Assembly (NCBI GenBank): GCA_030550175.1
Contig: JAUQPW010000004.1
Location: 21,211 to 85,210, forward strand
Length of the DNA stretch: 64,000 bases
Direction: 5' to 3'
Source of the DNA: a bacterium
GTDB lineage: Bacteria > Moduliflexota > Moduliflexia > Moduliflexales > JAUQPW01
A program made the position numbers and the translations under genes. Each line of letters begins with the position of its first letter. Position 1 is the stretch's first letter. Positions 2,921 to 62,845 of this stretch are shown one piece after another. The notes under the pieces were generated by a model. The model was not told where the DNA came from. It worked only from the letters and a program-made list of their open reading frames with translations, and did not search any database.

Positions 2921-3098
2921 TACTTTGTAAAGTTAAATTTGAGTAATCATTTTGCCCTCACCCTCGGCCCCTCTCCCGAAGCTTCGGGAGAGGGTTACCG
3001 GGAAGCTGACCTGGAGATCCACCGGCTCCCCTCTCCCGCAGCGTGGGAGAGGGGCCGAGGGTGAGGGCCACTTAAAAGTCAAGCAAAACTAAGTAAAC
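2921..3098. mobile_element. MITE/REP-like composite element, copy 1. Two arms, each holding the core palindrome GCCCTCACCCTCGGCCCCTCTCCC / GGGAGAGGGGCCGAGGGTGAGGGC around AAGCTT or CAGCGTG.
   Basis: Inverted repeats read directly. The same family recurs at 8387, 27544, 46828 and 58038. Confidence 0.7.
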
Positions 3099-3213
3099 CA
3101 TATACAATTTTGTTTCCTGGGACGATTCTGTTTCCTGCTTTCCCGGCATTCTGTGCGGATTAATTTTTTTACCGCAAAGTTTGCAGAGAAGGTATAAAGG
3201 ACGCAAAGGCTTT

Positions 3214-8209: not shown

Positions 8210-8386
8210 ATTCGAGTAAAAACCTGTCCTGGCCTGTGGGATACTACCCAGCATGAAAATCCTGATCGATTAAATCGCCGGCGTATTCTTTTCAGTTCAG
8301 TCATACCGTTCCCCATCGACTACCTTGATCAAAAAATGTGGGTAATGGTTAGCTTTGCAAGTTGCATCCCACTACGGAGACAGGGC

Positions 8387-8486
8387 ATTGTAAAGCTCAT
8401 TCGGTATAACTCCATCCCTCTCCCGAAGCTTGGGGAGAGGGGCCGGGGGTGAAGGCAAAGAGTTACACAGGATTAACTTTACAAAG
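8387..8486. mobile_element. MITE/REP-like element, copy 2 (about 100 bp). TTGTAAAG-type terminal inverted repeats flank the CCCTCTCCCGAAGCTTGGGGAGAGGG core.
   Basis: Core and flanks are the reverse complement of the left arm of copy 1. Confidence 0.65.
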
Positions 8487-8572
8487 CCATAATATAATCG
8501 GAAGCCGAGAGTTGGAAGTCAGAAGGAAAAACCCTTGAATTCTGATCTCTGACCCCCTGGCCTCTATCCATC

Positions 8573-17781: not shown

Positions 17782-17859
17782 AGTACGGGCGTCTCACCAC
17801 CCGACCTCCTTTTCTCCCTCTCCAGAAGCTTCAGGAGAGGAGGAACAAGGGCACACGTG

Positions 17860-18000
17860 CCAGGATAAGCTGAAAAACCCCATCAGGGGTGAACCGTTGG
17901 TAGTCCCCGACGAAAGTCGGAGGATTCAGAATTTTTTCAAGCTCTCTGGCAGCGGCCTGTTAAATAGGTTGCCCCGCTGGGGTTAACCTTCTTATCCTGG
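17860..18000 (+). ncRNA. Structured repeat element A (about 141 nt) closed by a 10-bp CCAGGATAAG / CTTATCCTGG stem. Candidate ncRNA or RNA-level repeat of unknown family.
   Basis: Internal hairpins CCCCATCAGGGG, CCGACGAAAGTCGG (GAAA tetraloop) and CAGCGG...CCGCTG. A homologous copy on the minus strand at 48245-48388 carries compensatory base changes. Confidence 0.45.
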
Positions 18001-18307
18001 CCCGTAGGAGGAGTGAGGAAGTGAGGCAGACGGTCATACTCCCATCTAAGCCTTATCCTGGTGCGTATAACTCTAAGGATCGAAGGGAAGCACAGGACCT
18101 TTGTGGATCCTCCCGATTCCATGGAAGGTATCCGGGAAACTATAACCCGGTTAAGCTCTTTCCTTTCTGGCTCTGAAGAGTAGGAAGAAGGGAAAATGCC
18201 ATAGATGCAGCCATTGCCTTTGCACCCACCGTCGTGGAGCCGATGATAATCGGCATCTTTATTTGGTTCGACTCTTTTTATTCAACCTTTTGACGAAAGG
18301 AAAAACT

Positions 18308-21235: not shown

Positions 21236-24200
21236 ATGAAATTACCTCGCCTTCTACCTTACTCGACGCTTGCACGCCTGATCATCATTATAGGCCTTTT
21301 AAGTTGTTTGTTTTTAAGTTATCTGCTCACCCGGATCCAGCCTCATTTCGGGTTGTACTGGATGGTTTTAGACCTACTTGCCATTACCCTTATAGTTCTC
21401 GCCTTTCTTCAAGCTCGTAAGGGCTTTTCTAAATCCCCCCCGGCTATGATCGTGGATATGAAGATAAAAGGATCTGCCAAGGATAGTTTGCTGACGGCAC
21501 ATATTCAGAATATTGAAAGCAAGATCAAACCCCAGAAAGATCTGCCTTATTTAGAAGACTGGGGAGAAGTGATCCCAACAGATCCCTTTTACGGACGGGA
21601 AAAGGAACTAAGTAAGCTAACCCGATGGATTATGACCGACCGCTGCCGCATAATCGCCCTATTGGGCATGGGAGGAATGGGTAAAACGGCTCTTTCAAGG
21701 AAACTAGTAGAACAAATTAAAGATCGATTTGATTTTGTCATCTGGCGTTCCCTCCGGCATGCCCCTCCCCTGGAAGATCTGCTAGGGGACTTTCTCCAAA
21801 TTTTATCCCGCCAGCAACAACCAGAGCGACGAAAAAGTATAGAACGGAGAATAGATCTCTTAATGGAGTGTCTCCAGAGACATCGTTGCCTGATTATCCT
21901 GGATAATTTAGAATCGGTCCTTTCCCAGGATGATGATTCAGACCATTATCCAGAGGGTTATGAACCCTATGGCTGGCTCATTCAGCGAATAGGAGAAATC
22001 TCTCATCAGAGTTGCTTGATCTTAACCGGTCGAAGGAAACCCAAAGAAATCTTTCACCTGGAGGGTAGGATCTCCCCGGTTCGATCTTTACAACTGGGCG
22101 GATTAAGACCGGCCGAAATTCGGGAAATCTTGAAAGATCAGAATTTATCCGGAACCCAGGAAGCCTGGATAACCCTGGTTAACCGTTATGCCGGGAATCC
22201 TTTGGCCTTGAAGCTTGTTTCTGCAACTATCCAACACTCCTTTGGAGGAGATATAACAGAATTTCTAAAGCAGGAGACCTCAAACTTTAACTTTGAAGAT
22301 ATTCAGGATCTTTTAAATCGGCAATTTAATTCCCTCTCCAATCTAGAAGAAGATATTCTCTATTGGCTGGCCATCGACCGTGAACCTGTTTCGATAAAAG
22401 AATTACTGGAAGACATGATCCATCCCGTATCCAAAGCGAAATTAAAAGAGGCTTTGGAATCTTTACAAAAACGATTTCTGGTTGAAAAAGATGAAAACGA
22501 ACGTTTTACACTCCAGCCTACCCTCATGGACTATGGGATTAATCGGTTGATAGGGCGGATTTGTGAAGAGATTTCCACAGAAACCCCCATCTTCCTCAAC
22601 AGCCATGCACTCCTTAAAGCCCAGGAAAAAGATTACATCCGAGAGAGTCAAATTCGGGTTATCCTTAAACCTACGGCCGATAGGCTTCTTAAGACCTTAG
22701 GTAGAGAAGTTGTCGAAAGTAAATTAGATAATATTCTATCAACCTTGCGAGAAAAATCTCCCCTTATACCTGGATATACCGGAGGGAATGCCCTGAATCT
22801 TTTAGTCCAGATGGAAAGTGATATAAGGAGTTATAACTTCTCGGACTTAACGATCTGGCAGGCTTATCTCCCAGGGGTCGTCCTGCACAATGTCAACTTT
22901 GCCCACGCAGACTTGAGTAAATCTGTTTTTACGAAAACCTTTGGAAGTATTTCTTCGGTTGTATTCAGTTCCGATGGAAAGTTTTTGGCCGGAGGGGGGG
23001 CCGATGGTGAAATTCGCCTTTGGCAGGTGGAAGATACCCGACTGCTTTTCACGTTTAAGGGGCATACAGGTTCTGTAATTTCCATTGCTTTTAGCCCAGA
23101 CAGTAGCATGCTAGCCAGTAGCAGTGATGATCAGACGATTAAATTATGGGATATTCAGACCGGTCGGTGTTTTCAAACCCTGCGAGGACATACCAACTGG
23201 GTAAGATCTGTGGTTTTCAATCCAGGTGGAAAAATTTTGGCCAGTAGCAGTGATGATGAAACCGTCAAGTTATGGGATGTCCGTACCGGGGAATGCCTGA
23301 GAACACTCCGGGGACACACAAATTGGGTATGGTCTGTGGCTTTCAGTCCTGATGGAAATATCCTGGCCAGTGGGAGTGATGATCAGACGATCCGACTATG
23401 GGATACCCATACCGGGGAATGTCTCAAAATGTTACAGGGACACACCGGTTGGGTAGGTTCTGTAGCTTTTAGTCCGGATGGGAACTTCCTGGCTTCTGGA
23501 AGTGCCGATCAAACCATAAGATTGTGGGATGTCCAGACTGGTCAATGTTTTAAAATTTTGCACGGCCATACCGATCGGATAAAGTCTGTTGCGTTCAGTC
23601 CTAAAGGAAATATGTTGGGTAGTGGTTCTGAGGATCAAAGCATCAAGTTATGGAGTATGAAAACGGGTGAGTGTCTTAGAACGCTCCAGGGGCATACTGA
23701 TTGGGTAAACGCAATTGCCTTTAGTCCTGATGGACATCTGCTGGCCAGTGGGAGTGAAGATCAAACTATTCGCTTATCAGAGGTTCGTACGGGCCAGTGC
23801 CTTAGAACTCTCCAGGGATATACCAACGGAATATGGACTATTGCGCTGAGTCCAGACGGAAGTATTTTAGCCAGTGGGAGTGAAGATCGACTGGTTCGGT
23901 TGTGGGATGCCCGAACAGGTCGATGCTTTAAAATTTTGAAAGGACATACGAAACGCATAAGGTCCCTTGCCTTCAGTCCTGATAACCGTATTTTAGCCAG
24001 TAGTAGTGATGATCGAACCGTTAAACTCTGGGATATCCAAACCGGTCAGTGCCTCAAAACTTTAAAGGGACATACTTCTCGGGTGAGGTCTGTGACCTTC
24101 AGTCAGGATGGGCAAACGCTGGCGAGTCGAAGTGCTGACCGAATTGTAAAAGTATGGGATGTTCGAACGGGCCTGTGCCTGGAGACTTTCCAGGGATGGA

Positions 24201-24685
24201 CCCGCTACGTCCGATCCGTTGCCTTTAGTCCGGATGGCAGTACCTTCGCCGGTGCAGGTGAAAATTACACCGTCGGTTTATGGAGCGTAAGCACAGGTCG
24301 ATGCCTTAAAACCTTCCGGGGACATTTGAGCCAGGTCTGGTCGGTCGCCTTTAGCCCGGATGGAAATATCCTGACCAGCGGAAGTGAGGATCAAACCATA
24401 AGGTTATGGGACGTTCCTACCGGCCAATGTCTTAAAACCTTGTATGGCCACCGCCACGGAGTTTGGTCCCTGGTCTTTGATCCTACAGGGGGTGTTTTAA
24501 TTAGCGGTAGTGAAGATGAAACTATTAAGTTTTGGGATGTTCAAACAGGTGAATGTCTCAAAACGCTGAGAAATGACAGGCTTTGTGAAGGAATGAATAT
24601 CACAGGAGCTAAAGGCCTGTCCGAAGCCCAGAAAGCAACTCTCAAGGCTTTGGGAGCCATCGAAAACCTGGAAAATGTCAGTTGA
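21236..24685 (+). CDS. STAND NTPase (NB-ARC/AP-ATPase) with N-terminal two-helix transmembrane module and about 14 C-terminal WD40 repeats. Candidate Avs/NLR-like defence protein.
   Basis: Two hydrophobic helices at residues about 12-32 and 41-61. Walker [17 protein letters not shown], Walker [12 protein letters not shown], then [15 protein letters not shown]...LASGSxDxTIxLWD repeated about 14 times. Confidence 0.8.
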
Positions 24686-27457: not shown

Positions 27458-27543
27458 GTTAAGAACCTACGGTGAGTTTTCACCGTTGTCAACCTCGTGA
27501 CGTCGATAAAAAGTTTTTAGAAATTTCTTGCCAGTTCAGGTAG

Positions 27544-27700
27544 TACTTTGTAAAGTTAAATTCGAGTAACCATTCTGTCCTCACCTCCGGCCCCTCTCCT
27601 GAAGCTTAGGGAGAGAGGGCACTTGGGGAGTTGATCCGGAGATTTGCCGACTTCCCCTCTCCTACAGTGTGGGAAAGGGGCCGGAGGTGAGGGTGAGCAA
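27544..27700. mobile_element. MITE/REP-like composite element, copy 3
   Basis: TACTTTGTAAAGTTAAATTCGAGTAA...CCCCTCTCCTGAAGCTTAGGGAGAGAGGG...CCCCTCTCCTACAGTGTGGGAAAGGGGCCGGAGGTGAGGGTGAG is collinear with copy 1. Confidence 0.7.
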
Positions 27701-27749
27701 TTCCGTTTAAAGATCCTAACCCGCTCATCCTAACAAAAGGAGATTGAAA

Positions 27750-34160: not shown

Positions 34161-34223
34161 AGAACGCCATATGAGAATATGAGGGTATGGGGAGTACTCC
34201 CACACTTCCCATACTCTCACATT

Positions 34224-43444: not shown

Positions 43445-46400
43445 TTATCTCTTGGCCAATTCCAGCTTCAACTCTTCAATTACTTTTTGGAGTTCCCCGA
43501 TTTGATTGTCCGCTTTAACCAAAGCAATGGCTTTTTCGCTGACGGCTTGATTGGCTATATCCAACTGGCCACGGAGCTGGCTCACCTGAGTGGTTAACTC
43601 TCCCAGAGCCTTTTCCTTTTCTTCCAGCTTTTTCCTGAACTCTTCTTGCATCTGGTTGAACTGGCTTTGAAGTTGTGCGAAGGCTTTTTCCTTTTCGTCC
43701 AGATTCTTCCGGACTTCCTCCAGTTGATTTTGTAACTGACCGGGTTGGGATCGTAAGCTTTCAAGGGCCTGATCTTTTTCCAGGAGTTGATTGTTTGCGG
43801 TGTCTAACTGGCTTCGAAGTTGAGCCATCTGGGTCAACAAACCCTCTATTTCCTTGTTCTTTTCTTCCTGGCTACGTTGAGCTTCTTCTTGTAGTTGTTT
43901 CAATCGGGTCGTTAAGGTCGTAAGCTCCTCGTCTTTTCCCTGGAGACGGGCCAGGGCTTCTTCAAGTTTACCCTGTAATTGGTTTACCTGATCGGTTAAG
44001 CTTGCAAGCAACCTGTCTTTCTCCTGGAGGTTTTGTTTCGACTCTTCCTGTAATCGGTTAAGTTGATCCGTGGCCGCAGCCAGGGCTTTATCTTTTTCAC
44101 TCAGATCTTCATTAACTGCCGCCAGTTGGTTTTGGAGTTGATCGAACTGCATAGCCCAGTTCGCCAGGGCCTGATCCTTTTCGGCAAGGACCTTCTGGCT
44201 CTCTTCCTGAGCCAGGGTAAGCTGAGCTTTTAAATCGGCTACCAGTCGATCTTTTTCTTCTTGTAATTGATTGAGCTTATGGGTTACCCGGGCTAAGGCG
44301 ATGTTCTTTTCACTTATCATGTCTTGCAGCGTCTTCAACTGACCCTGCAACTGATTAACCTGTTGGGTCACGTTGGTCACTGCAGCCTCTTTCTCCGTCA
44401 AATTTTGTTGAGATTCTTTTTTTAACTGATCCAGTTGCCGGCTCAAGTCGGTCAAAGCCAGGGTTTTTTCGCTTATATTCTGGTTGGCAACTTCTATCTG
44501 GGTTCGTAGTTGATTTATCTCTGCTATCAACTCTGCAATCCTTTGTTCTTTTTTATCTAAAGCTTTCCTGGCTTCCTCCCGTTCTTGAGCCATCTGATCC
44601 TTAAGCGCCAGGAGGGTCTGTTCCTTTTCGTTCAAAGCCTGTTGAGTCTGGTTCTGTAACTGATTCAAGGAAGCATTCAAAGAGGCAATGATTTTATCTT
44701 TCTCCTCCAGGTTCTTCTTCATTTCTTCTTGTAACTGACGGGATTGCTTATGCGAATCGGCCAACGCAAGGGTTTTTTCGCTCACATTCTGATTGGCAAA
44801 ATCCAGTTGACCCTGAAGTTGATTTAATCTGGCCGTTAGATCGGCAACTACCCGGTCTTTTTCTTCTAAACCTTTCTTTATTTCTTCCTGCAGTTGACGA
44901 ACCTGCGTGTTTAAGTCCGCAGCTATCTTTTCATTTTTCTCTAAATTCTCCTGGAGCTGGTTTCGCTGATGAATCAAATGGGCTAAAGCATTGGTTTTTT
45001 CACTGAGATTTTGGTGGGTTACTTCCAGTTGACCACGTAATTGATTTAACTGGCCTGTTAAATCCCCGATCACCCTGTCTTTCTTTGCCAGATTCTCCTG
45101 GAGTTGATTGAGTTGGTTGGTCAGGTTTACCAGGGTAATTGCTTTTTCACCTATATGTTGATGGGCCGTATTCAGTTGGGTTCGCAGCTGATTTACTTCT
45201 TGGGTTAGATCCCCGATCTTTTGCTCTTTCTCTGCCAAGCTCTTTTGAGTCTCTTTTTGTTCTCTACTCAATTCGTCAAGATTATTCTGGATCTTAGCCT
45301 GTAGATTTTTCTGCTGATGGAGTGCTTCGGTTAACCGATTCACTTCAGTATTTTTTGCCTCTAATTGAGCCCGTAATTGGTTCAACTGATCGGTTAAGCT
45401 GGCAAGAACTGCTTCCTTTTCTTGCAGATTTTTCCTACTTTCCTCCTGGACTCGATCCAATCGATTGGCTAAATCAGAGAGAGCTAATGTTTTTTCACTG
45501 AGGCTTTGATTGGCTGCATTAAGCTGGCCCAGAGACTGATTTAGTTGCGCAGTCAGGTTGGTAATGACCTGCTCTTTTTCGGTTACATTCTTTTGATATT
45601 CCTCTTGAAGTTGATTCAACTGCTTGCTTAAGTTATTGAACGCGAGGCTCTTTTCGCTGGCGTTTTGACGAGCAATATCCATTTGACCTCGGATTTGGTT
45701 GATCTGCGAAGCCAGTTCATTAACCACTCGCTCCTTTTCTGCTAAAATCCTTTGGGTTTCCTCTTGCTCCTGACTCTTCTTTTCTAAGTTACTTCGGATT
45801 TCCTCCAATTGTTTAGCGTGCCGGTTGAGATCTGCCATCAGGTTATCGATCTGAGTGTTTTTCTCATCCAGTTGAGCCTGCAACTGGTTGATCCGGCTGT
45901 TCAACTCCTCCAGGGCTTTGTTCTTTTCTTCCAGATTTTTTTGAGTTTCCTCGTGGGTCCGATTTAACTCCTTATGGATTCCCTCCAATTCAGCCAGATC
46001 CTGGTTGGCTTTCTTTAGCTGATCCTGCAACTGAGCAATCTGCTCAGTTAAATGCGTAGTTTCCCTGTCCTTTGCAGCTAACCTCTTATTTTCCCCTTGA
46101 AGCCGTCCGATCTGTTCTTTTAAGTCGGTCAAGGCTTTATCCTTTTCGGCAAGACCTTTATTTTCCTCTTGAAGCCGTCCGATCTGTTCTTTTAAGTCGG
46201 TCAAGGCTTTATCCTTCTCACTCAGGCTTTGATCGGCGTTTTTGAGTTGATCTTGCAATTCATTTACTCGAGCGGTTAAATCTCTTACCTGAGCTTCCTT
46301 TTCACTTAATGCTCTCTTAAAATCCTCCTGGACCTGGTTAAGTTGAGTTCGTAGGGTTATGAGTTCTTTGTCTTTTTCTTCAATATTTCTGCCGGCGTCT

Positions 46401-46627
46401 TCGAGTTTGCTCTGTGAATTTTTAAGTTGAGTATTTAGATCGGCCAGGATTTTATCTTTTTCGCTTAACTGCTTTTTAGATTCCTCTTGGATTTGATTTA
46501 ACTGATAACCCAGTTTACGAACTTCGCTCCTTTTGCTTGCATAGAGTCCTGTCATAAAAACTACTGCTATGGCCATGACAAGACTTAAAATGCCTAAACT
46601 TTTCTTTGTAAAAATTTGTACTTCCAT
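43445..46627 (-). CDS. Giant membrane-anchored coiled-coil protein (1060 aa) built from about 50-aa tandem repeats. Cytoskeleton-like / filament-forming candidate.
   Basis: N-terminal transmembrane helix (LGILSLVMAIAVVFMTGLY), then about 1000 residues of heptad-rich repeats (LTxQLNQLxGQLxxANQxLSEKxxAL...). Nearly no Pro, Gly or aromatic residues. Confidence 0.7.
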   Translation of the reverse strand: MEVQIFTKKSLGILSLVMAIAVVFMTGLYASKRSEVRKLGYQLNQIQEESKKQLSEKDKILADLNTQLKNSQSKLEDAGRNIEEKDKELITLRTQLNQVQEDFKRALSEKEAQVRDLTARVNELQDQLKNADQSLSEKDKALTDLKEQIGRLQEENKGLAEKDKALTDLKEQIGRLQGENKRLAAKDRETTHLTEQIAQLQDQLKKANQDLAELEGIHKELNRTHEETQKNLEEKNKALEELNSRINQLQAQLDEKNTQIDNLMADLNRHAKQLEEIRSNLEKKSQEQEETQRILAEKERVVNELASQINQIRGQMDIARQNASEKSLAFNNLSKQLNQLQEEYQKNVTEKEQVITNLTAQLNQSLGQLNAANQSLSEKTLALSDLANRLDRVQEESRKNLQEKEAVLASLTDQLNQLRAQLEAKNTEVNRLTEALHQQKNLQAKIQNNLDELSREQKETQKSLAEKEQKIGDLTQEVNQLRTQLNTAHQHIGEKAITLVNLTNQLNQLQENLAKKDRVIGDLTGQLNQLRGQLEVTHQNLSEKTNALAHLIHQRNQLQENLEKNEKIAADLNTQVRQLQEEIKKGLEEKDRVVADLTARLNQLQGQLDFANQNVSEKTLALADSHKQSRQLQEEMKKNLEEKDKIIASLNASLNQLQNQTQQALNEKEQTLLALKDQMAQEREEARKALDKKEQRIAELIAEINQLRTQIEVANQNISEKTLALTDLSRQLDQLKKESQQNLTEKEAAVTNVTQQVNQLQGQLKTLQDMISEKNIALARVTHKLNQLQEEKDRLVADLKAQLTLAQEESQKVLAEKDQALANWAMQFDQLQNQLAAVNEDLSEKDKALAAATDQLNRLQEESKQNLQEKDRLLASLTDQVNQLQGKLEEALARLQGKDEELTTLTTRLKQLQEEAQRSQEEKNKEIEGLLTQMAQLRSQLDTANNQLLEKDQALESLRSQPGQLQNQLEEVRKNLDEKEKAFAQLQSQFNQMQEEFRKKLEEKEKALGELTTQVSQLRGQLDIANQAVSEKAIALVKADNQIGELQKVIEELKLELAKR
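46097..46216. repeat. Tandem duplication of a 72-bp (24-aa) unit inside the coiled-coil gene. The first about 48 nt of the two units are identical.
   Basis: TTGAAGCCGTCCGATCTGTTCTTTTAAGTCGGTCAAGGCTTTATCCTT occurs at 46097 and again at 46169. The protein reads LTDLKEQIGRLQEENK... twice. Confidence 0.8.
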
Positions 46628-46827
46628 ACTTCTTTTCTGACTGCCTCCTCCCTAAAGTTGTTAAACTACCATTGAAAATTGATAACAATTGTCCAACAAG
46701 AATCCCCTATTTCTGGGGAATATGTCAAGGGGTTTTTTGGAAATCTTCATGGGACATGAAATCCAGATAATTTTTAATACCCAGTTGGGTTTGATAGGAA
46801 GAAGTATCGTATTGTTATCTTGTAATA

Positions 46828-46945
46828 CACTGTTTACTTAATTGTAACCTCATAGGACTGCTTTCACTCCCTAACCCCCCCTGCTGGGAGAGGGGCCGGG
46901 GGTGAGGGCTGCTTAAAAGTCAAACAAAACTAAGTAAACAATATA
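46828..46945. mobile_element. MITE-like element, copy 4, with TGTTTACTTA(A/G)TT terminal inverted repeats and the GGGAGAGGGGCCGGGGGTGAGGGC core
   Basis: Left end ACACTGTTTACTTAATTG and right end AACTAAGTAAACA are reverse complements. The internal core is shared with the other copies. Confidence 0.65.
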
Positions 46946-47285
46946 GTAATACATATTGCCATTCTGTAATAAGAATGGGAAAAGTTATGGCAACAGCCTT
47001 CCTTTAACCTCGATCAAGAGCCTTTAGTTAGCCCCTGATTTTTCAAAAATCCTATAAACGGTAATATCTTTGTAGAAATCTTTAATTTCAAGTGCAAAGG
47101 ACACAAATAACAGGAAAGTTTTATTAAACAAAGACGTCTGTTCCGGTTTATGGGAATCTTCAGGTACTTTGGAGTCGTAGAAGGTTCATTAACTTCCAGA
47201 GCTTTATCAAAGGCCACCGAAAAACGGTTTAACTTTCTCGGTCTCAGATAAAGTCTAAGGGTCTAAAGAGTATTATCTGGAAAGG

Positions 47286-47672
47286 ATGGAAAAGAATGGG
47301 AAAGGCAAGAGTGAAAAAAATGTAACCTTCCTTCCTACACTTATCCATGCTCTTCTTTTAACGATGATGGGGGTCATACTTTTTTATATCTACTCAACTG
47401 CCTCTTTTGCTCAGATCCCCTGTACCCTGGGGACCCCTAAGCACTTCCAGCGTGTGCTTATTATTGTTCTTGAGAATCAGAATTATAAGGAGGTAATGAA
47501 AGATTCTTACTTCTGCTCCCTGGCCCAGCGTGGTGCGAACTTCACCAATTTTCATGGGTTGTTTCATCCTTCTTACTCGAACTATTTAGCCATGGTATCC
47601 GGCAAGAAGATCCGAACTCACTTCGACTGGCAGGTTGATTTAACAGATCATAAAACGATTGCCGATTCATAG
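47286..47672 (+). pseudogene. Possible N-terminal fragment of a phosphoesterase (PLC/AcpA family), truncated after 128 aa
   Basis: A transmembrane/signal segment, then RVLIIVLENQNY...DSYFCSLAQRG...HPSYSNYLAMVSG resembling the family N-terminus (VVLMQENRSFDHYFGTLRG...). No ORF continues for about 800 bp downstream. Confidence 0.3.
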
Positions 47673-48244
47673 GGGCATAGGGAGATTTCCTGTTCTTTCC
47701 AGGATGGTTTTAATTCGATTAAGTTAGTTTTGATATTTAATCCCCGGAAAGCACCAGGTCACACATTTTGTGAGTTTGTCCCTGCACTTCCTTTGTAGAC
47801 TAAATAAGCCGATAGGTCAGTGGGAATTATTGTCTTAGAAATCGGTCGGATATGATTTTGCATAAATATAAAACAAAATCCTAAGAGGGCTCCTATAAAG
47901 ATCCTTCTCTTGAAAATAACTACCCTAATTCTTTTTCCTTCCTGAAGGGAGGTTCCTGGATGGAGGATTCATCAAATCTTCCTGGAGAATACCCCATCGG
48001 TTTTCTTGGAGATTCAATTTCCCCTCGATTTTATACCTGTTTACCAGAAAAACACGAGGTAAGGGGTCGGGTCGTCCTATGCAGTTACTTTCCAAGAGTA
48101 GCTATAGAGGTCTGCTTCCATATTTTCAGATCAGTTGCTTCATCCTCGGATTATGCAGAACGGAGCTTTCTGATTTTATCTCTTTTCTAAAGCAAAGACC
48201 ATACCACCGGCCAGCTTCTGTCCGCCAGGGGAAACAGAATCCTA

Positions 48245-48388
48245 TCTTTCTCTAAGTCCCAGCAGGGTGACCTGTTTAACAGGCCGCTCCTCCAGAGCTT
48301 GAAAAAATTCTGATTGACTGAATCCCCCCGACCTGCGTCGGGAGCTACCCGCTGTTCGCCCCTGACGGGGCTTTTCAGCTTATCCTGG
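48245..48388 (-). ncRNA. Structured repeat element B, homologous to element A at 17860-18000. It begins with CCAGGATAAGCTGAAAAG and lies about 110 nt downstream of the selenoprotein gene on the same strand.
   Basis: Collinear alignment to element A. Compensatory changes include A-CCCC...GGGG-T versus G-CCCC...GGGG-C, CCGACGAAAGTCGG versus CCCGACGCAGGTCGGG, and CCTGTTAAATAGG versus CCTGTTAAACAGG. Confidence 0.45.
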
Positions 48389-48498
48389 CGCCCATGGGGA
48401 TGGGGGGTTGAGGTAGCCTGCCCCTGGGCAGGCGGAACACAACTTTATGGAACCTTATCCACCCATCAAACGAGACGTTTGACCTACTGGAATAGGTA

Positions 48499-53246: not shown

Positions 53247-53431
53247 TTTCTTGTTTTAAGTTTCTTGATCCTGGCGATTACATGATAGAGATAAAGCCAG
53301 ATCCGACAGTATAAAAGCCTGCTCCTGGGATCTGATACCATTAAGCAGGCAGCCCCTCCCTTCCCTCCCACATGCAGGGAGGGTCAGGGTGAGGCCAGAA
53401 GATGGTTCTCCTTACGTCGTCTAAACCGTAG

Positions 53432-55216: not shown

Positions 55217-56209
55217 TTATTTATTCTGTTGATTTCCGGTTGATATTCGCTTTAAGGGTGGAATCACGGTCGAGGTGGGGGTTGGAGTTACTTTGGGAGT
55301 CGGGGTTGCCGAAGGGGTGGGGGTGGGAGTAGGCGTTACATCCGGTGTTGAGGTCACCGAAGGGGTGGGGGTGGGAGTGGGCGTCATATCCGGTGTTGGG
55401 GTCACCGAAGGGGTGGGGGTGGGCGTTGTGTTGGAAGTTTGGGTAGGGGTTGGAGTAGGAGTAGAGAGAGACGGTGTTACGGTAGGCGTAGAGGTTGGCG
55501 TAGGGCTTGGCGTGGCCGGATGTGGAGTCGGTGTGGGAGTGGACTCGGAGCGATAAGGAGTTGGGGTTGGTTCCGGTCGGACCGAAGTTGCAGGATTGGA
55601 TAGAACCATTTGGGGAGTTGGTGTGGGAGTGGCAACAGCCGGAGCCGGAATGGGGAGCGAAAAGGGGGATCCTGTAAGGTTATTATGGATGGTGACCGGT
55701 ATCCCATTAACCTCTCCGATCACGTTTTTCTCTCCGTTTATTTTTTCGATTTTACAAAGGATGGAATGATCCGGTTTATTGGGAGTTATATTCACTCCGA
55801 ACTGGAAATCGATATTTTTAGAGGCCTGCATGACTCTTACGATGAAATCTCCAAAGGGAATACCCATAAAGACAAATTCACCGTTTTGCCCGGTAATCGT
55901 ACTACTTATTTCGTTATTTTTTTCATCCAGCAACAGGACCAGAAGGCCGGGAACTCCCACGGTGTTACTTGTATTGATTACGGCCTCGGCAGGATATATG
56001 AAGGTAAAAGCTAAGGCAAATATTTTCTCCAACCAGGTATCTTGAGAGAGTTGAGTTCCGGCATCGGTGATAATTCGACCGTTCAAGGTACCTATTCCGC
56101 TTAGGGGTTCGGTTCCAGTCGGGCTATTCTCGAAATCTCCACAGCCATAAAGTGAAACCACTATGGCCAGGATGAACAATTTTCTACTCAACCCACCTGT
56201 CTTTTCCAT
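55217..56209 (-). CDS. Lipoprotein with carboxypeptidase-regulatory-like beta domain and about 120-aa Pro/Thr-rich repetitive C-terminal tail
   Basis: The signal peptide ends in LYGCG (lipobox). [18 protein letters not shown] has the CarbopepD_reg-like pattern. The tail is [20 protein letters not shown]... repeats. Confidence 0.6.
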
Positions 56210-57949: not shown

Positions 57950-58037
57950 CTCGATGCAAGGGCATAGAGAAGCGGAGGTATCAAGGTGTTACCTGGTTTC
58001 CGTATCTCTATATCCTTACACCCCTGCGTTGATTGGC

Positions 58038-58165
58038 ACACTGTTACCTTAGTTTTGACCTCCTAGGACTACCTTCACTCCCCAACGCCCCTCTCCCGCA
58101 GCGTGGGAGAGGGGCCGGGGTGAGGGCCACTCAAAAGTCAAGCCAAAACTAAGTAAACAGTGTAT
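58038..58165. mobile_element. MITE-like element, copy 5, with about 20-bp terminal inverted repeats (ACACTGTTACCTTAGTTTTGAC ... GTCAAGCCAAAACTAAGTAAACAGTGT)
   Basis: The inverted repeats and the CCCCTCTCCCGCAGCGTGGGAGAGGGGCCGGGGTGAGGGCC core are read directly. It lies between the JAB and E1 genes of the Ubl operon. Confidence 0.7.
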
Positions 58166-58602
58166 TAGTTCACTATTTTGATCCTTACCGGTTGATAGGT
58201 TTCCTTTAAATAAATCCCGGCCTGATATTCTGTACGTGAAAATAACAGTCGAACAAGGGTATTGTTTTGGATATAATTACCCTCTTTATCGTAGAATCCG
58301 TACCGAGCCAGTTGAGGATGATAGGTGTTATCTATTTTGGAGTATCTGGCTTTTTTAGAAAGGGGATGGGTATGAAAAAGGAACAGATAATATCCTTGAG
58401 CGTGGACCCACTGAAGGTAAGAACCACACTGTTCGGGGTCTATAACGACATGGAAAAGTCCATTATGTTGGATTTTCGTATCCTTTAAAATTTCAACCAG
58501 TTTAAATTCTTTAGATACAGCACCCAGGTAAGCTTTTTCTTTTGGTGACCGAAGTGCCTTTTTAAGGAAAGCCAGATCGGCCCTTGATATTTTAAGGACC
58601 AC
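58165..58602 (-). CDS. JAB/MPN (JAMM) metallopeptidase-like protein (BilC-like deconjugating enzyme candidate)
   Basis: JAMM triad read directly: DPEQCG (Glu), FHTHP (HxH), and S-K-I-D (S-x2-D). The start was moved to the GTG at about 58602 to remove a 65-nt overlap with the upstream gene. Confidence 0.6.
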   Translation of the reverse strand: MVLKISRADLAFLKKALRSPKEKAYLGAVSKEFKLVEILKDTKIQHNGLFHVVIDPEQCGSYLQWVHAQGYYLFLFHTHPLSKKARYSKIDNTYHPQLARYGFYDKEGNYIQNNTLVRLLFSRTEYQAGIYLKETYQPVRIKIVN

Positions 58603-58603
58603 A

Positions 58604-59158
58604 CTACCACCATCTCTTTCTCGTTTTCTCTGCCTGTCGCGCGAACCAATGCCAGGCCGCACGTACATATTCCGCTAAGGTAACATCTGCATAGACGTGG
58701 AAACAAGACCAACACCATCCCAGGTCTCCGTGATGGGACTGACGAGAAGTTGCAGGAAAATAATGTTCCCCTAAAAGCCGGCTAAATCCCTCTTCAATAT
58801 GCATGAGGTAATTTTTGACGGCTCCCTTATTTCCGGCTGTAACCGGCAACTCTATCAGTGCATGGGTGACCGGGCTTTCTTTTCCACAGGTAAGGGCCAA
58901 CTCCGCAGGCAATTTCCAGTTATAGAGATAAATGTAGTCAAACCCTTCGATATAAGAACCCTTCTGATCTTTGGAAGTACGTACATCCGCCATGGCATAG
59001 ATCCCTTTGGTCTCGTATGCCGGCAATTCAATGGGATGAGAAAAACGGAAGCACTCTTCGGTACCTATGAGTTTAATCAATTCAAGGTACTGACGATTGA
59101 TCTCCTCAACGTTTTGTCTATACCAGTTAAACAGTTTAAACACAGAACAACCCCTCAA
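58604..59158 (-). CDS. E2-like candidate (BilB-like) by operon position. The UBC fold cannot be confirmed by eye.
   Basis: A 184-aa protein sitting between the Ubl and JAB genes. Candidate Cys residues are C91 and C149 (HHGDLGWCW). No canonical HPN motif. Confidence 0.35.
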   Translation of the reverse strand: MRGCSVFKLFNWYRQNVEEINRQYLELIKLIGTEECFRFSHPIELPAYETKGIYAMADVRTSKDQKGSYIEGFDYIYLYNWKLPAELALTCGKESPVTHALIELPVTAGNKGAVKNYLMHIEEGFSRLLGEHYFPATSRQSHHGDLGWCWSCFHVYADVTLAEYVRAAWHWFARQAEKTRKRWW

Positions 59159-62706: not shown

Positions 62707-62845
62707 TCTAAAGAAATGGGGTATGGGAGTGTGGGGGTGTGGGGAAGTGGAAGTATGGGGGTGTGGGAGTATGGGAGTATAGGAGACAGAATCCCTACAT
62801 CCCCCCCACTTCCATACTTCCCCACACCCCCACACTCTTTAAATA

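Follow-up and report, generated by a model that had tools for sequence, protein, structure and literature searches.

What are the short, palindrome-bearing repeats that recur through the 64,000-nucleotide stretch of contig JAUQPW010000004.1 analysed here (the whole stretch is called the window below), and how did they come to lie there? The window holds five such elements, with 7 core units (TM units) and 2 decayed cores in its 64 kb, and we consider it likely that they are mosaic miniature inverted-repeat transposable elements (MITEs) of a KSB3/Moduliflexota-like bacterium that carry as cargo the motif described in Escherichia coli as BoxC, PIT or TM_ECO. Insertion of these mobile elements involves a 4-bp staggered cut. 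They also exchange modules, in that cargo varies between elements with the same inverted repeats, and inverted repeats vary between elements with the same cargo. What is new here is the BoxC/triplex motif inside target-duplicated MITEs, which contradicts the earlier conclusion of "no mobile-element link"; moreover, the carriers represent new families of MITEs, from a phylum that has received little study.

A first-pass annotation of this DNA had proposed at least five copies of an AAGCTT-centred palindromic family, and all five elements are present at the places that it gave, as read directly from the sequence, every copy lying between open reading frames (ORFs). The boundaries of the copies, in contrast to their number and location, had to be refined, to 2921-3104, 8384-8488, 27544 to approximately 27720, 46826-46945 and 58037-58164. 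The 24-nt G-rich arm, GGGAGAGGGGCCGRGGGTGAGGGC, matches with at most 3 mismatches at six places, 2954 (minus strand), 3045 (plus), 8433 (plus), 27577 (minus), 27671 (plus) and 46886 (plus), against no match of any kind in 100 dinucleotide-preserving shuffles of the window; a seventh core unit, at 58105, has a 1-nt deletion. Both suspected degenerate cores are likewise real, the one at 17816-17853 having kept the AAGCTT loop and the one at 53363-53394 being a 7-triad variant. The features are the following.

2921-3104, plus strand: copy 1, composite 'AB', 184 bp; A-type left end, two inverted tail-out TM units, B-type right end
2954-2994, minus strand: TM unit 1 of copy 1, CCCTCTCCC-GAAGCTTC-GGGAGAGGGG-CCG-AGGGTGAGGG-C
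3026-3068, plus strand: TM unit 2 of copy 1, CTC-CCCTCTCCC-GCAGCGT-GGGAGAGGGG-CCG-AGGGTGAGGG-C
8384-8488, plus strand: copy 2, A-type, about 101-105 bp; imperfect inverted repeats GGCATTGTAAAGCT / AACTTTACAAAGCC; one TM unit
27544-27720, plus strand: copy 3, second AB composite; TM units at 27577-27617 (minus) and 27651-27694 (plus)
46826-46945, plus strand: copy 4, B-type MITE, 120 bp; inverted repeats TACACTGTTTACTTAATTG / CAAAACTAAGTAAACAATATA
58037-58164, plus strand: copy 5, B-type MITE, 128 bp; TM unit at 58088-58127 with loop GCAGCGT and a 1-nt deletion in loop 2
17816-17853, plus strand: decayed TM unit, CCCTCTCCA-GAAGCTTC-AGGAGAGGA, then a degenerate third arm
53363-53394, plus strand: short 7-triad TM variant, CCCTCCC-ACATGCA-GGGAGGG-TCA-GGGTGAGG

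The suggestion that two kinds of ends occur is borne out, both being over-represented in the window: end A (ACTTTGTAAAGTTAA) occurs three times, at 2922, 27545 and, on the minus strand, 8473, and end B (CAAAACTAAGTAAACA) five times, at 3084, 46925 and 58144 and, on the minus strand, 46831 and 58042. Copies 1 and 3 are indeed composites of the two and are 81% identical to each other, spacer included; the left end of copy 3 is A-type and preceded by GTAG (27540-27543), and of the B end on its decayed right side only TTTAAAGATC is left. The palindrome with two long arms, by contrast, is not the general form, as it holds for copies 1 and 3 only (in copy 1, the 24-nt arms lie 67 nt apart and are 100% complementary). 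Copies 2, 4 and 5 have a single long G-arm preceded by a C-arm of only 9-10 nt, so that the basic unit is asymmetric and no simple palindrome. In copy 2, the unit consists of a Y arm at 8416-8424, the loop GAAGCTTG and R plus RH arms at 8433-8456, and in copy 4 the G-arm occupies 46886-46909 and the C-arm has decayed. Nor does AAGCTT define the core, being a variable loop of one subfamily. No A or B end is recognisable at the decayed unit at 17816-17853, and the stretch with the variant at 53363-53394 is missing from the closest relative.

Judged by its arms, the core of these elements is the BoxC/PIT/TM_ECO element of E. coli, a purine-motif intrastrand triplex, in a version with 10 triads; the unit common to the genome hits described below is CTC-CCCCTCTCCC-loop-GGGAGAGGGG-CCG-GGGGTGAGGG-C. 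The BoxC or PIT element was reportedly described by Bachellier in the 1990s and by Hoyne and Maher in 2000. In the latest detailed account found here, "BoxC" is the repeat that was later termed the PIT element and finally TM_ECO, an intrastrand triplex of the class II purine-motif type that follows the pattern CCCTCNCCC-N3-6-GGGNGAGGG-N3-GGGNGAGGG, with 3610 copies in 262 proteobacterial genomes that are always intergenic and often form inverted pairs (Holder et al., 2015; PMC4666352). The triplex is stable in vitro, a role in genomic instability was proposed, and the motif was not linked to transposons, phages or plasmids ("never" with mobile elements) (PMC4666352). In the window, the Y arm CCCTCNCCC followed by a complementary GGGNGAGGG occurs at 2969, 3029, 8416 and 58089, against 0.01 expected; the C-arm of copy 3 is a variant. 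A third, mirror-symmetric arm GGGNGAGGG lies 3' of the purine arm, in the class II order Y-R-RH, and GGGAGAGGGG-CCG-(A/G)GGGTGAGGG is present in all seven units.

For the comparison with E. coli we used the published table (PMC4666352) and the MG1655 sequence. The type-B copies of E. coli read CCCTCTCCC TGT GGGAGAGGG CCG GGGTGAGGG C (Table 1, PMC4666352), and the window units have the same arms CCCTCTCCC, GGGAGAGGG and GGGTGAGGG in the same class II order, the same CCG loop 2 and the same CT prefix that precedes the C-arm in MG1655, and they too are intergenic, on both strands and, in copies 1 and 3, arranged as inverted pairs. The differences are that each window arm is one G longer, which gives 10 triads; that loop 1, at 7-8 nt, is longer than the 3-6 nt of E. 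coli and self-complementary (AAGCTT or GCAGCGT); that the window pairs are tail-out whereas the hrpB-mrcB pair of MG1655 is tail-in; that the motif lies inside MITEs with inverted repeats and target duplications, whereas Holder et al. found no link to mobile elements; and that the host is KSB3-like and the exact motif occurs in at least 10 phyla, as opposed to the 262 proteobacterial genomes published. The published pattern has a loop 1 of 3-6 nt and a loop 2 of 3 nt; if the window arms are counted as 10 nt, loop 2 is CCG (3 nt) and loop 1 is 7-8 nt, and if they are counted as 9 nt, loop 2 is 5 nt. Because loop 1 is self-complementary, its effective length is 3-4 nt. A BLAST search of E. coli genomes with the 43-nt unit returned nothing useful, the query being short and of low complexity; a full-text search of the literature for the exact 23-mer yielded no paper, a shorter sub-word having led to Holder et al. 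(2015), and no substantive follow-up of the TM_ECO work after 2015 was found in the literature. In E. coli, the BoxC pair of the hrpB-mrcB spacer (L169-L172) is polymorphic among 5,426 genomes: an O111 strain has lost exactly 64 bp between two direct GGGAGAGGG repeats of the pair and retained a plain hairpin, which is a direct example of deletion between repeated arms; the whole pair of approximately 100 bp is absent from ST131 and many other strains; and in strain A11 the first unit is partly deleted.

The modular exchange is seen in the A ends. A relative has a well-conserved 226-bp A element that lacks the triplex motif, and the window A copy at 8384-8488 has the same ends around a motif unit. 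Moreover, the composite of an A-type left and a B-type right end around two tail-out units, the architecture of copies 1 and 3, is also found at a locus of a relative (L157), and the spacer module GGATCYCCAGGTCAGCYTCC recurs in other arrangements. As single-stranded DNA, the elements are predicted to fold into an inverted-repeat stem with a central G/C hairpin of 10-12 bp, the third arm remaining free of Watson-Crick pairing; for copy 1, the predicted fold is one 35-bp hairpin of -56.7 kcal/mol (z = -9.1).

That the carriers are a non-autonomous, recently mobile, MITE-like family, as had been suspected, follows from their terminal inverted repeats, their 4-bp target duplications and their non-orthologous sites. 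They are small (100-230 bp), non-coding and multi-copy, with 5 copies in 64 kb and 13 further loci in a relative, and their positions differ between related genomes. The A end class reads TA-CTTTGTAAAGTTAA and the B class TA-CNNN-GTTTACTTARTTTTG ... AAAACTAAGTAAAC-NNNN-TA, and the ends of both classes pair in the single-stranded folds. Aligned across two species with both ends present, the B elements consist of a 4-bp word, then TA-cnnn-GTTTACTTARTTTTG...motif...AAAACTAAGTAAAC-nnnn-TA, then the same 4 bp. The check for target-site duplications at the insertion ends thus found 4-bp direct repeats, perfect in 7 of the 9 B elements from the window and a relative and different in sequence at each locus:

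Window 46826-46945: GTAA / GTAA (46822-46825 and 46946-46949)
L124: CTAG / CTAG
L158: TTAG / TTAG
L162: GTAG / GTAG
L166: GTAG / GTAG
L164: GGAG / GGAG
L161, around a dimer: CTAG ... CTAG
Window 58037-58164: TTGG (58033-58036) / TTAG (58165-58168), 3 of 4 positions matching
L124, second element: flanks mismatch

By our own arithmetic, a single 4-bp flank match has a chance of approximately 1/256, so that seven perfect cases out of nine are far beyond chance. Because the repeats are direct rather than inverted, and locus-specific, they are target-site duplications outside the inverted repeat. Among A elements, 2 of 7 are flanked by perfect repeats (CTAG/CTAG and ATAG/ATAG), and three more match at 3 of 4 positions. 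The minus-strand ORF 58165-58668 (167 aa, no Pfam match) abuts copy 5, its TAA stop lying inside the TTAG flank, and the insertion of copy 5 therefore touches the 3' end of a possible gene.

These flanks bear on the parentage of the family. Insertion by IS630 elements gives a TA duplication, and IS200/IS605 elements give none. Repeats of the REP/BIME kind moved by RAYT, an IS200/IS605-like Y1 enzyme, or IS630/Tc1-type MITEs with a TA duplication, could be suspected from the BIME-like modularity of the mosaics and from the inverted repeats, which end in TA, with TA adjoining nearly every end. Indeed, a TA duplication of the IS630 type was the first reading of the flanks, ruled out when the 9 B elements were aligned. 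The 4-bp direct repeats lie outside the terminal TA (GTAA/GTAA, TTAG/TTAG, GTAG/GTAG, GGAG/GGAG), whereas a TA-only model or an extension of the inverted repeat predicts a right flank that is reverse-complementary or unrelated, and they argue against both the IS630 and the IS200/IS605 parents that had been put forward. Furthermore, REPs, with which the elements had been compared, and IS200/IS605-derived PATEs are a poor match, as REPs lack terminal inverted repeats and target duplications and the window elements have both. A scan of approximately 30 window ORFs yielded neither a Y1 nor a DDE_3 transposase. We regard this alternative as highly unlikely. The resemblance to enterobacterial BIMEs is that of a mosaic built from a few short modules (A end, B end, TM unit in either direction, GGATCYCCAGGTCAGCYTCC spacer), BIMEs differing in being built from REPs, linked to RAYT and devoid of inverted repeats and target duplications.

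Among autonomous elements, the IS5 family makes 4-bp duplications at YTAR sites. Both end classes of the carriers start with 5'-TAC, and one transposase therefore probably serves both; we presume that it is IS5-like, this being our best guess for the parent. The carriers share with IS5 the 4-bp duplication and TAG-containing targets (CTAG, TTAG), and they differ in that GTAG, GGAG and GTAA targets of the window and relative fall outside YTAR, in that their ends lack the typical GG/GA start, and in that no transposase is linked to them. With the Correia (Neisseria), ERIC/IRU, RUP and Nezha (cyanobacteria) MITEs they have in common a length of 100-230 bp, non-coding, intergenic copies in large number, terminal inverted repeats, target-site duplication and long hairpin folds; unlike these, they carry a triplex-motif cargo, and the parent insertion sequence was not found. 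To our knowledge, 5'-TAC... ends combined with a 4-bp NTAG-like duplication match none of these four. A candidate parent, the DDE_Tnp_1 fragment at the start of a locus of a relative (L123), was rejected, its ends being unrelated.

Comparison with relatives, whose loci were fetched around their uvrB genes, bears out the expectation that copies occupy non-orthologous sites. The window host is, to judge from UvrB, a KSB3/Moduliflexota-like bacterium, the window protein being 76% identical to that of Ca. Vecturithrix granuli and 70-74% identical to those of KSB3 and Moduliflexus genomes; a cyanobacterial origin was ruled out by the absence of HIP1 (GCGATCGC) together with KSB3/Moduliflexota as the best named UvrB relatives. 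Closer loci have UvrB proteins 90% (L124-126) and 88% (L123) identical to that of the window, and the closest relative, L155, is approximately 87% identical at the DNA level. Two sites in L124 carry motif-bearing B elements that the window lacks; one site lies directly upstream of uvrB, where the 117-bp spacer of the window is empty; the spacer around this insert can be aligned by eye between the two, and the insert is a nest of several elements of approximately 600 bp. The elements are absent from L123 (22 kb) and L155 (10.7 kb). In L124 (10001-10057), as well as in L125 and L126, uvrB is called with 698 aa, against 679 aa in the window; the relative's call is probably a false start, since the extra N-terminal codons run into the B-type MITE. 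Two Logan short-read contigs of the same strain as the window (L001 and L002) both end inside copy 1, just past its first triplex unit, as expected of a multi-copy repeat, which breaks assembly. Synteny with L155 (6438-10660) ends at approximately 48498 of the window, and the window-specific stretch of approximately 46628-48497 contains copy 4, ORF 47286-47672 (no Pfam match) and a repeat at 48230-48400; relatives have genes for an AI-2E transporter and a histidine kinase at this site instead.

The label "lineage-specific" that had been given to the family holds for one of its parts only. When metagenomes were scanned for the third arm together with the B end, no more than 13 stretches matched, every one of them in the two JGI samples that contain the L124 organism, and the B carrier is therefore lineage-restricted. 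The core, in contrast, is not, being that of BoxC/PIT/TM_ECO (PMC4666352) and recurring as an exact 24-mer in many phyla, as detailed below.

The non-orthologous sites also bear on a further possibility, namely that the host keeps the elements at specific genes as conserved hairpins that regulate in cis, for example as terminators, mRNA stabilisers or binding sites for proteins. Their intergenic position, often at operon boundaries, and their very stable predicted folds would suit such a role, as would the relative's copy that lies 8 nt upstream of a shared 'cccttgac' box before uvrB. Set against this, the elements occur in both orientations relative to the flanking genes as well as at differing sites, target duplications flank them, no T-run follows the hairpins as read from the sequence, and Rfam gave 0 window hits at the gathering score and, at an E-value threshold, only generic miRNA-hairpin noise, which on copy 1 stayed below the gathering score, so that a known RNA family was rejected. 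Moreover, promoter or terminator activity of the E. coli motif was absent in experiments (PMC4666352). Such a regulatory function is thus very improbable.

Several points weigh against the reading of the elements as MITEs of a KSB3/Moduliflexota-like host with a BoxC-type cargo. An autonomous element or transposase with matching ends was found neither in the window nor in approximately 200 kb of related loci, and no pairs of the inverted repeats 0.7-2.5 kb apart occur in the related loci. The flanks of AB composites are imperfect, CTAT (2917-2920) / CAAT (3105-3108) for copy 1 in the window and CTCG/CTAT in L157. No clean pair of an empty and a filled site could be aligned in the available relatives, because their intergenic DNA is too diverged; comparisons upstream of the coiled-coil gene and in the YdjM/binding-protein spacer were set aside for the same reason or because of rearrangement at the junctions, and of the regions compared the one upstream of uvrB alone differs clearly between filled and empty. 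The taxonomic assignment depends on UvrB as the sole marker, whose identity to named KSB3 genomes is 70-76%. Finally, the triplex of the E. coli motif went undetected in vivo (PMC4666352).

The distribution of the motif outside the window lineage is far wider than that of its carriers. In a scan of GTDB with one genome per species, the exact 24-mer was found in at least 120 stretches from at least 10 phyla, as assigned from record titles; among the matches listed are Chloroflexota, Planctomycetota, Acidobacteriota, Pseudomonadota (Cupriavidus, Salinisphaera, Thiomargarita and others), Gemmatimonadota, Armatimonadota, Bipolaricaulota, Spirochaetota, Cyanobacteriota (Gloeobacterales) and Salinibacter, and 28 viral contigs carry it as well. 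The surrounding DNA is unrelated from hit to hit. A C-arm with at most 1 mismatch lies 2-15 nt upstream in 132 of 161 cross-phylum instances, the loop being mostly 3 or 6 nt, and the edges of the unit are sharp, with C, T and C at positions -3 to -1 in 93%, 75% and 98%, respectively, and nothing conserved before these 3 nt or past the terminal GGGC. The fetched loci contain 78 further copies that the bait had not selected, and in these the R and RH arms hardly vary and loop 2 is free (CCG, TTA, TTG, CTG, TCG and others). An A-to-G change at R4 is paired with an A-to-G change at RH6 in 4 of the 6 variant copies of this set, as triad geometry predicts, which provides weak, independent support for selection on mirror symmetry. 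With four G-runs separated by 3-nt loops, the G-arm also fits the classic pattern of a G-quadruplex. In other phyla, too, units are commonly paired tail-out, with approximately 30 nt of spacer (L009, L022, L028, L078, L104, L120).

Outside the window lineage, units are mostly "naked", that is, devoid of flanking inverted repeats: among 146 units, 6.8% reached a flanking inverted-repeat score of at least 12, whereas 1.3% of 477 control positions did so. The units that reached this score fall into at least four unrelated carrier families, in the Thiotrichaceae/Thiomargarita group, Caldilineaceae, Thermomicrobiales and L092. Thus, MITE cargo is a recurrent minority state of the motif, and its presence in unrelated carriers of other phyla suggests that different MITEs have captured it, or been invaded by it, more than once. 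The carrier loci in other phyla are L034/L104, L060/L062/L100, L004/L010/L025/L049 and L092, with the end sequences TATAAGTAGTGAAGCAGAAATTTT, TAGGTTCCGTTGACAT, ATACGGAATCCGGG and GACCCGTCTGAGGGGC.

This distribution invites the alternative of a very small cassette, the unit of approximately 45 nt running from CTC to GGGC, that is itself mobile or propagates itself and invades intergenic DNA and repeats, MITEs included; the "small dispersed repeats" of Nostoc are a possible parallel. Identical arms and sharp edges in at least 10 phyla, the predominance of naked copies elsewhere, unrelated carriers in at least four other lineages in addition to the two in the window, A-type elements both with and without the motif, and its presence on viral contigs all speak in its favor. 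However, neither an insertion junction nor a target duplication belonging to the unit alone was seen; all copies of the B family have the unit at the same internal position, which suggests inheritance with the family; and the hrpB-mrcB variation of E. coli is deletion between repeated arms, not clean insertion. On balance, autonomous mobility of the unit seems unlikely. In its broadest form, the idea would make CTC-CCCCTCTCCC-loop-GGGAGAGGGG-NNN-GGGGTGAGGG-C a pan-bacterial, horizontally spreading, self-propagating structural cassette that has repeatedly colonised, or been captured by, unrelated lineage-specific MITEs; doubtful as this is, such a cassette could spread by template switching at the folded hairpin or triplex during replication or repair, or by means of an enzyme, and, if real, it would explain invariant arms, free loops and sharp edges across at least 10 phyla and viral contigs.

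Returning to the mosaic MITEs with a BoxC-type cargo, we propose that both carrier classes would insert at NTAG-like sites with a 4-bp duplication, the staggered cut being made by one trans-acting DDE transposase that serves the A and B classes alike. When the DNA becomes single-stranded, the C-rich arm would pair with the G/A-rich arm into a hairpin, and the mirror-symmetric G/T-rich third arm may enter the major groove in a predicted purine-motif intrastrand triplex or, alternatively, form a G-quadruplex. The repeated arms would offer homology for template switching, deletion and recombination, and template switching or recombination might in turn generate A/B chimeras, tail-out pairs and local rearrangements; the A/B chimeras of the window and the break of synteny with L155 by copy 4 fit this picture. 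The motif would be a selfish structural cassette with no gene-regulatory role, which we infer from the non-orthologous sites, the two orientations, the lack of a T-run and of an Rfam match, and the negative published tests in E. coli.

The scan widens the known range of the motif from Proteobacteria to at least 10 phyla, and the exact conservation of the arms across them sharpens the question of why this sequence is kept. The finding leaves the BoxC puzzle unsolved but gives a tractable way into it. The MITE cargo state is one concrete, testable route for the spread of the motif within a genome, and A ends with and without the motif, together with the A/B chimeras, provide a natural system for asking whether a triplex or hairpin helps or hinders transposition. 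On the practical side, such repeats break short-read assemblies and cause false N-terminal extensions in gene calls.

Other repeats accompany these elements in the window. A third repeat family of approximately 130 nt is present in two inverted copies at 17855-18005 (plus strand) and 48230-48400 (minus strand) with 83-86% identity; its sequence is GCCAGGATAAGCTGAAAA.CCCC.TCAGGGG...AATTTTTTCAAGCTCT...GGCCTGTTAAA.AGGT, with no Rfam match, and the copy at 17855-18005 is bounded by 34-nt inverted ends of its own and lies directly next to the decayed triplex unit at 17816. At 62727-62837, in a stretch rich in G/T runs between an acetyl-CoA synthetase gene and ORF 62846, lies an inverted repeat whose 22-nt arms, GAGTGTGGGGGTGTGGGGAAGT, match perfectly across a 67-nt spacer, a distance identical to that between the paired arms of copy 1; a similar GT-rich palindrome occurs at 34169-34222. 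Repeats are also found within genes: the gene at 21236-24685 encodes a 1149-aa protein with at least 11 repeats of 126 nt (42 aa, WD40-like), the one at 43445-46627 a 1060-aa coiled-coil protein with weak similarity to the crescentin rod, and the ORF at 55217-56209 contains G-rich tandem repeats of 42-51 nt at 55268-55519.

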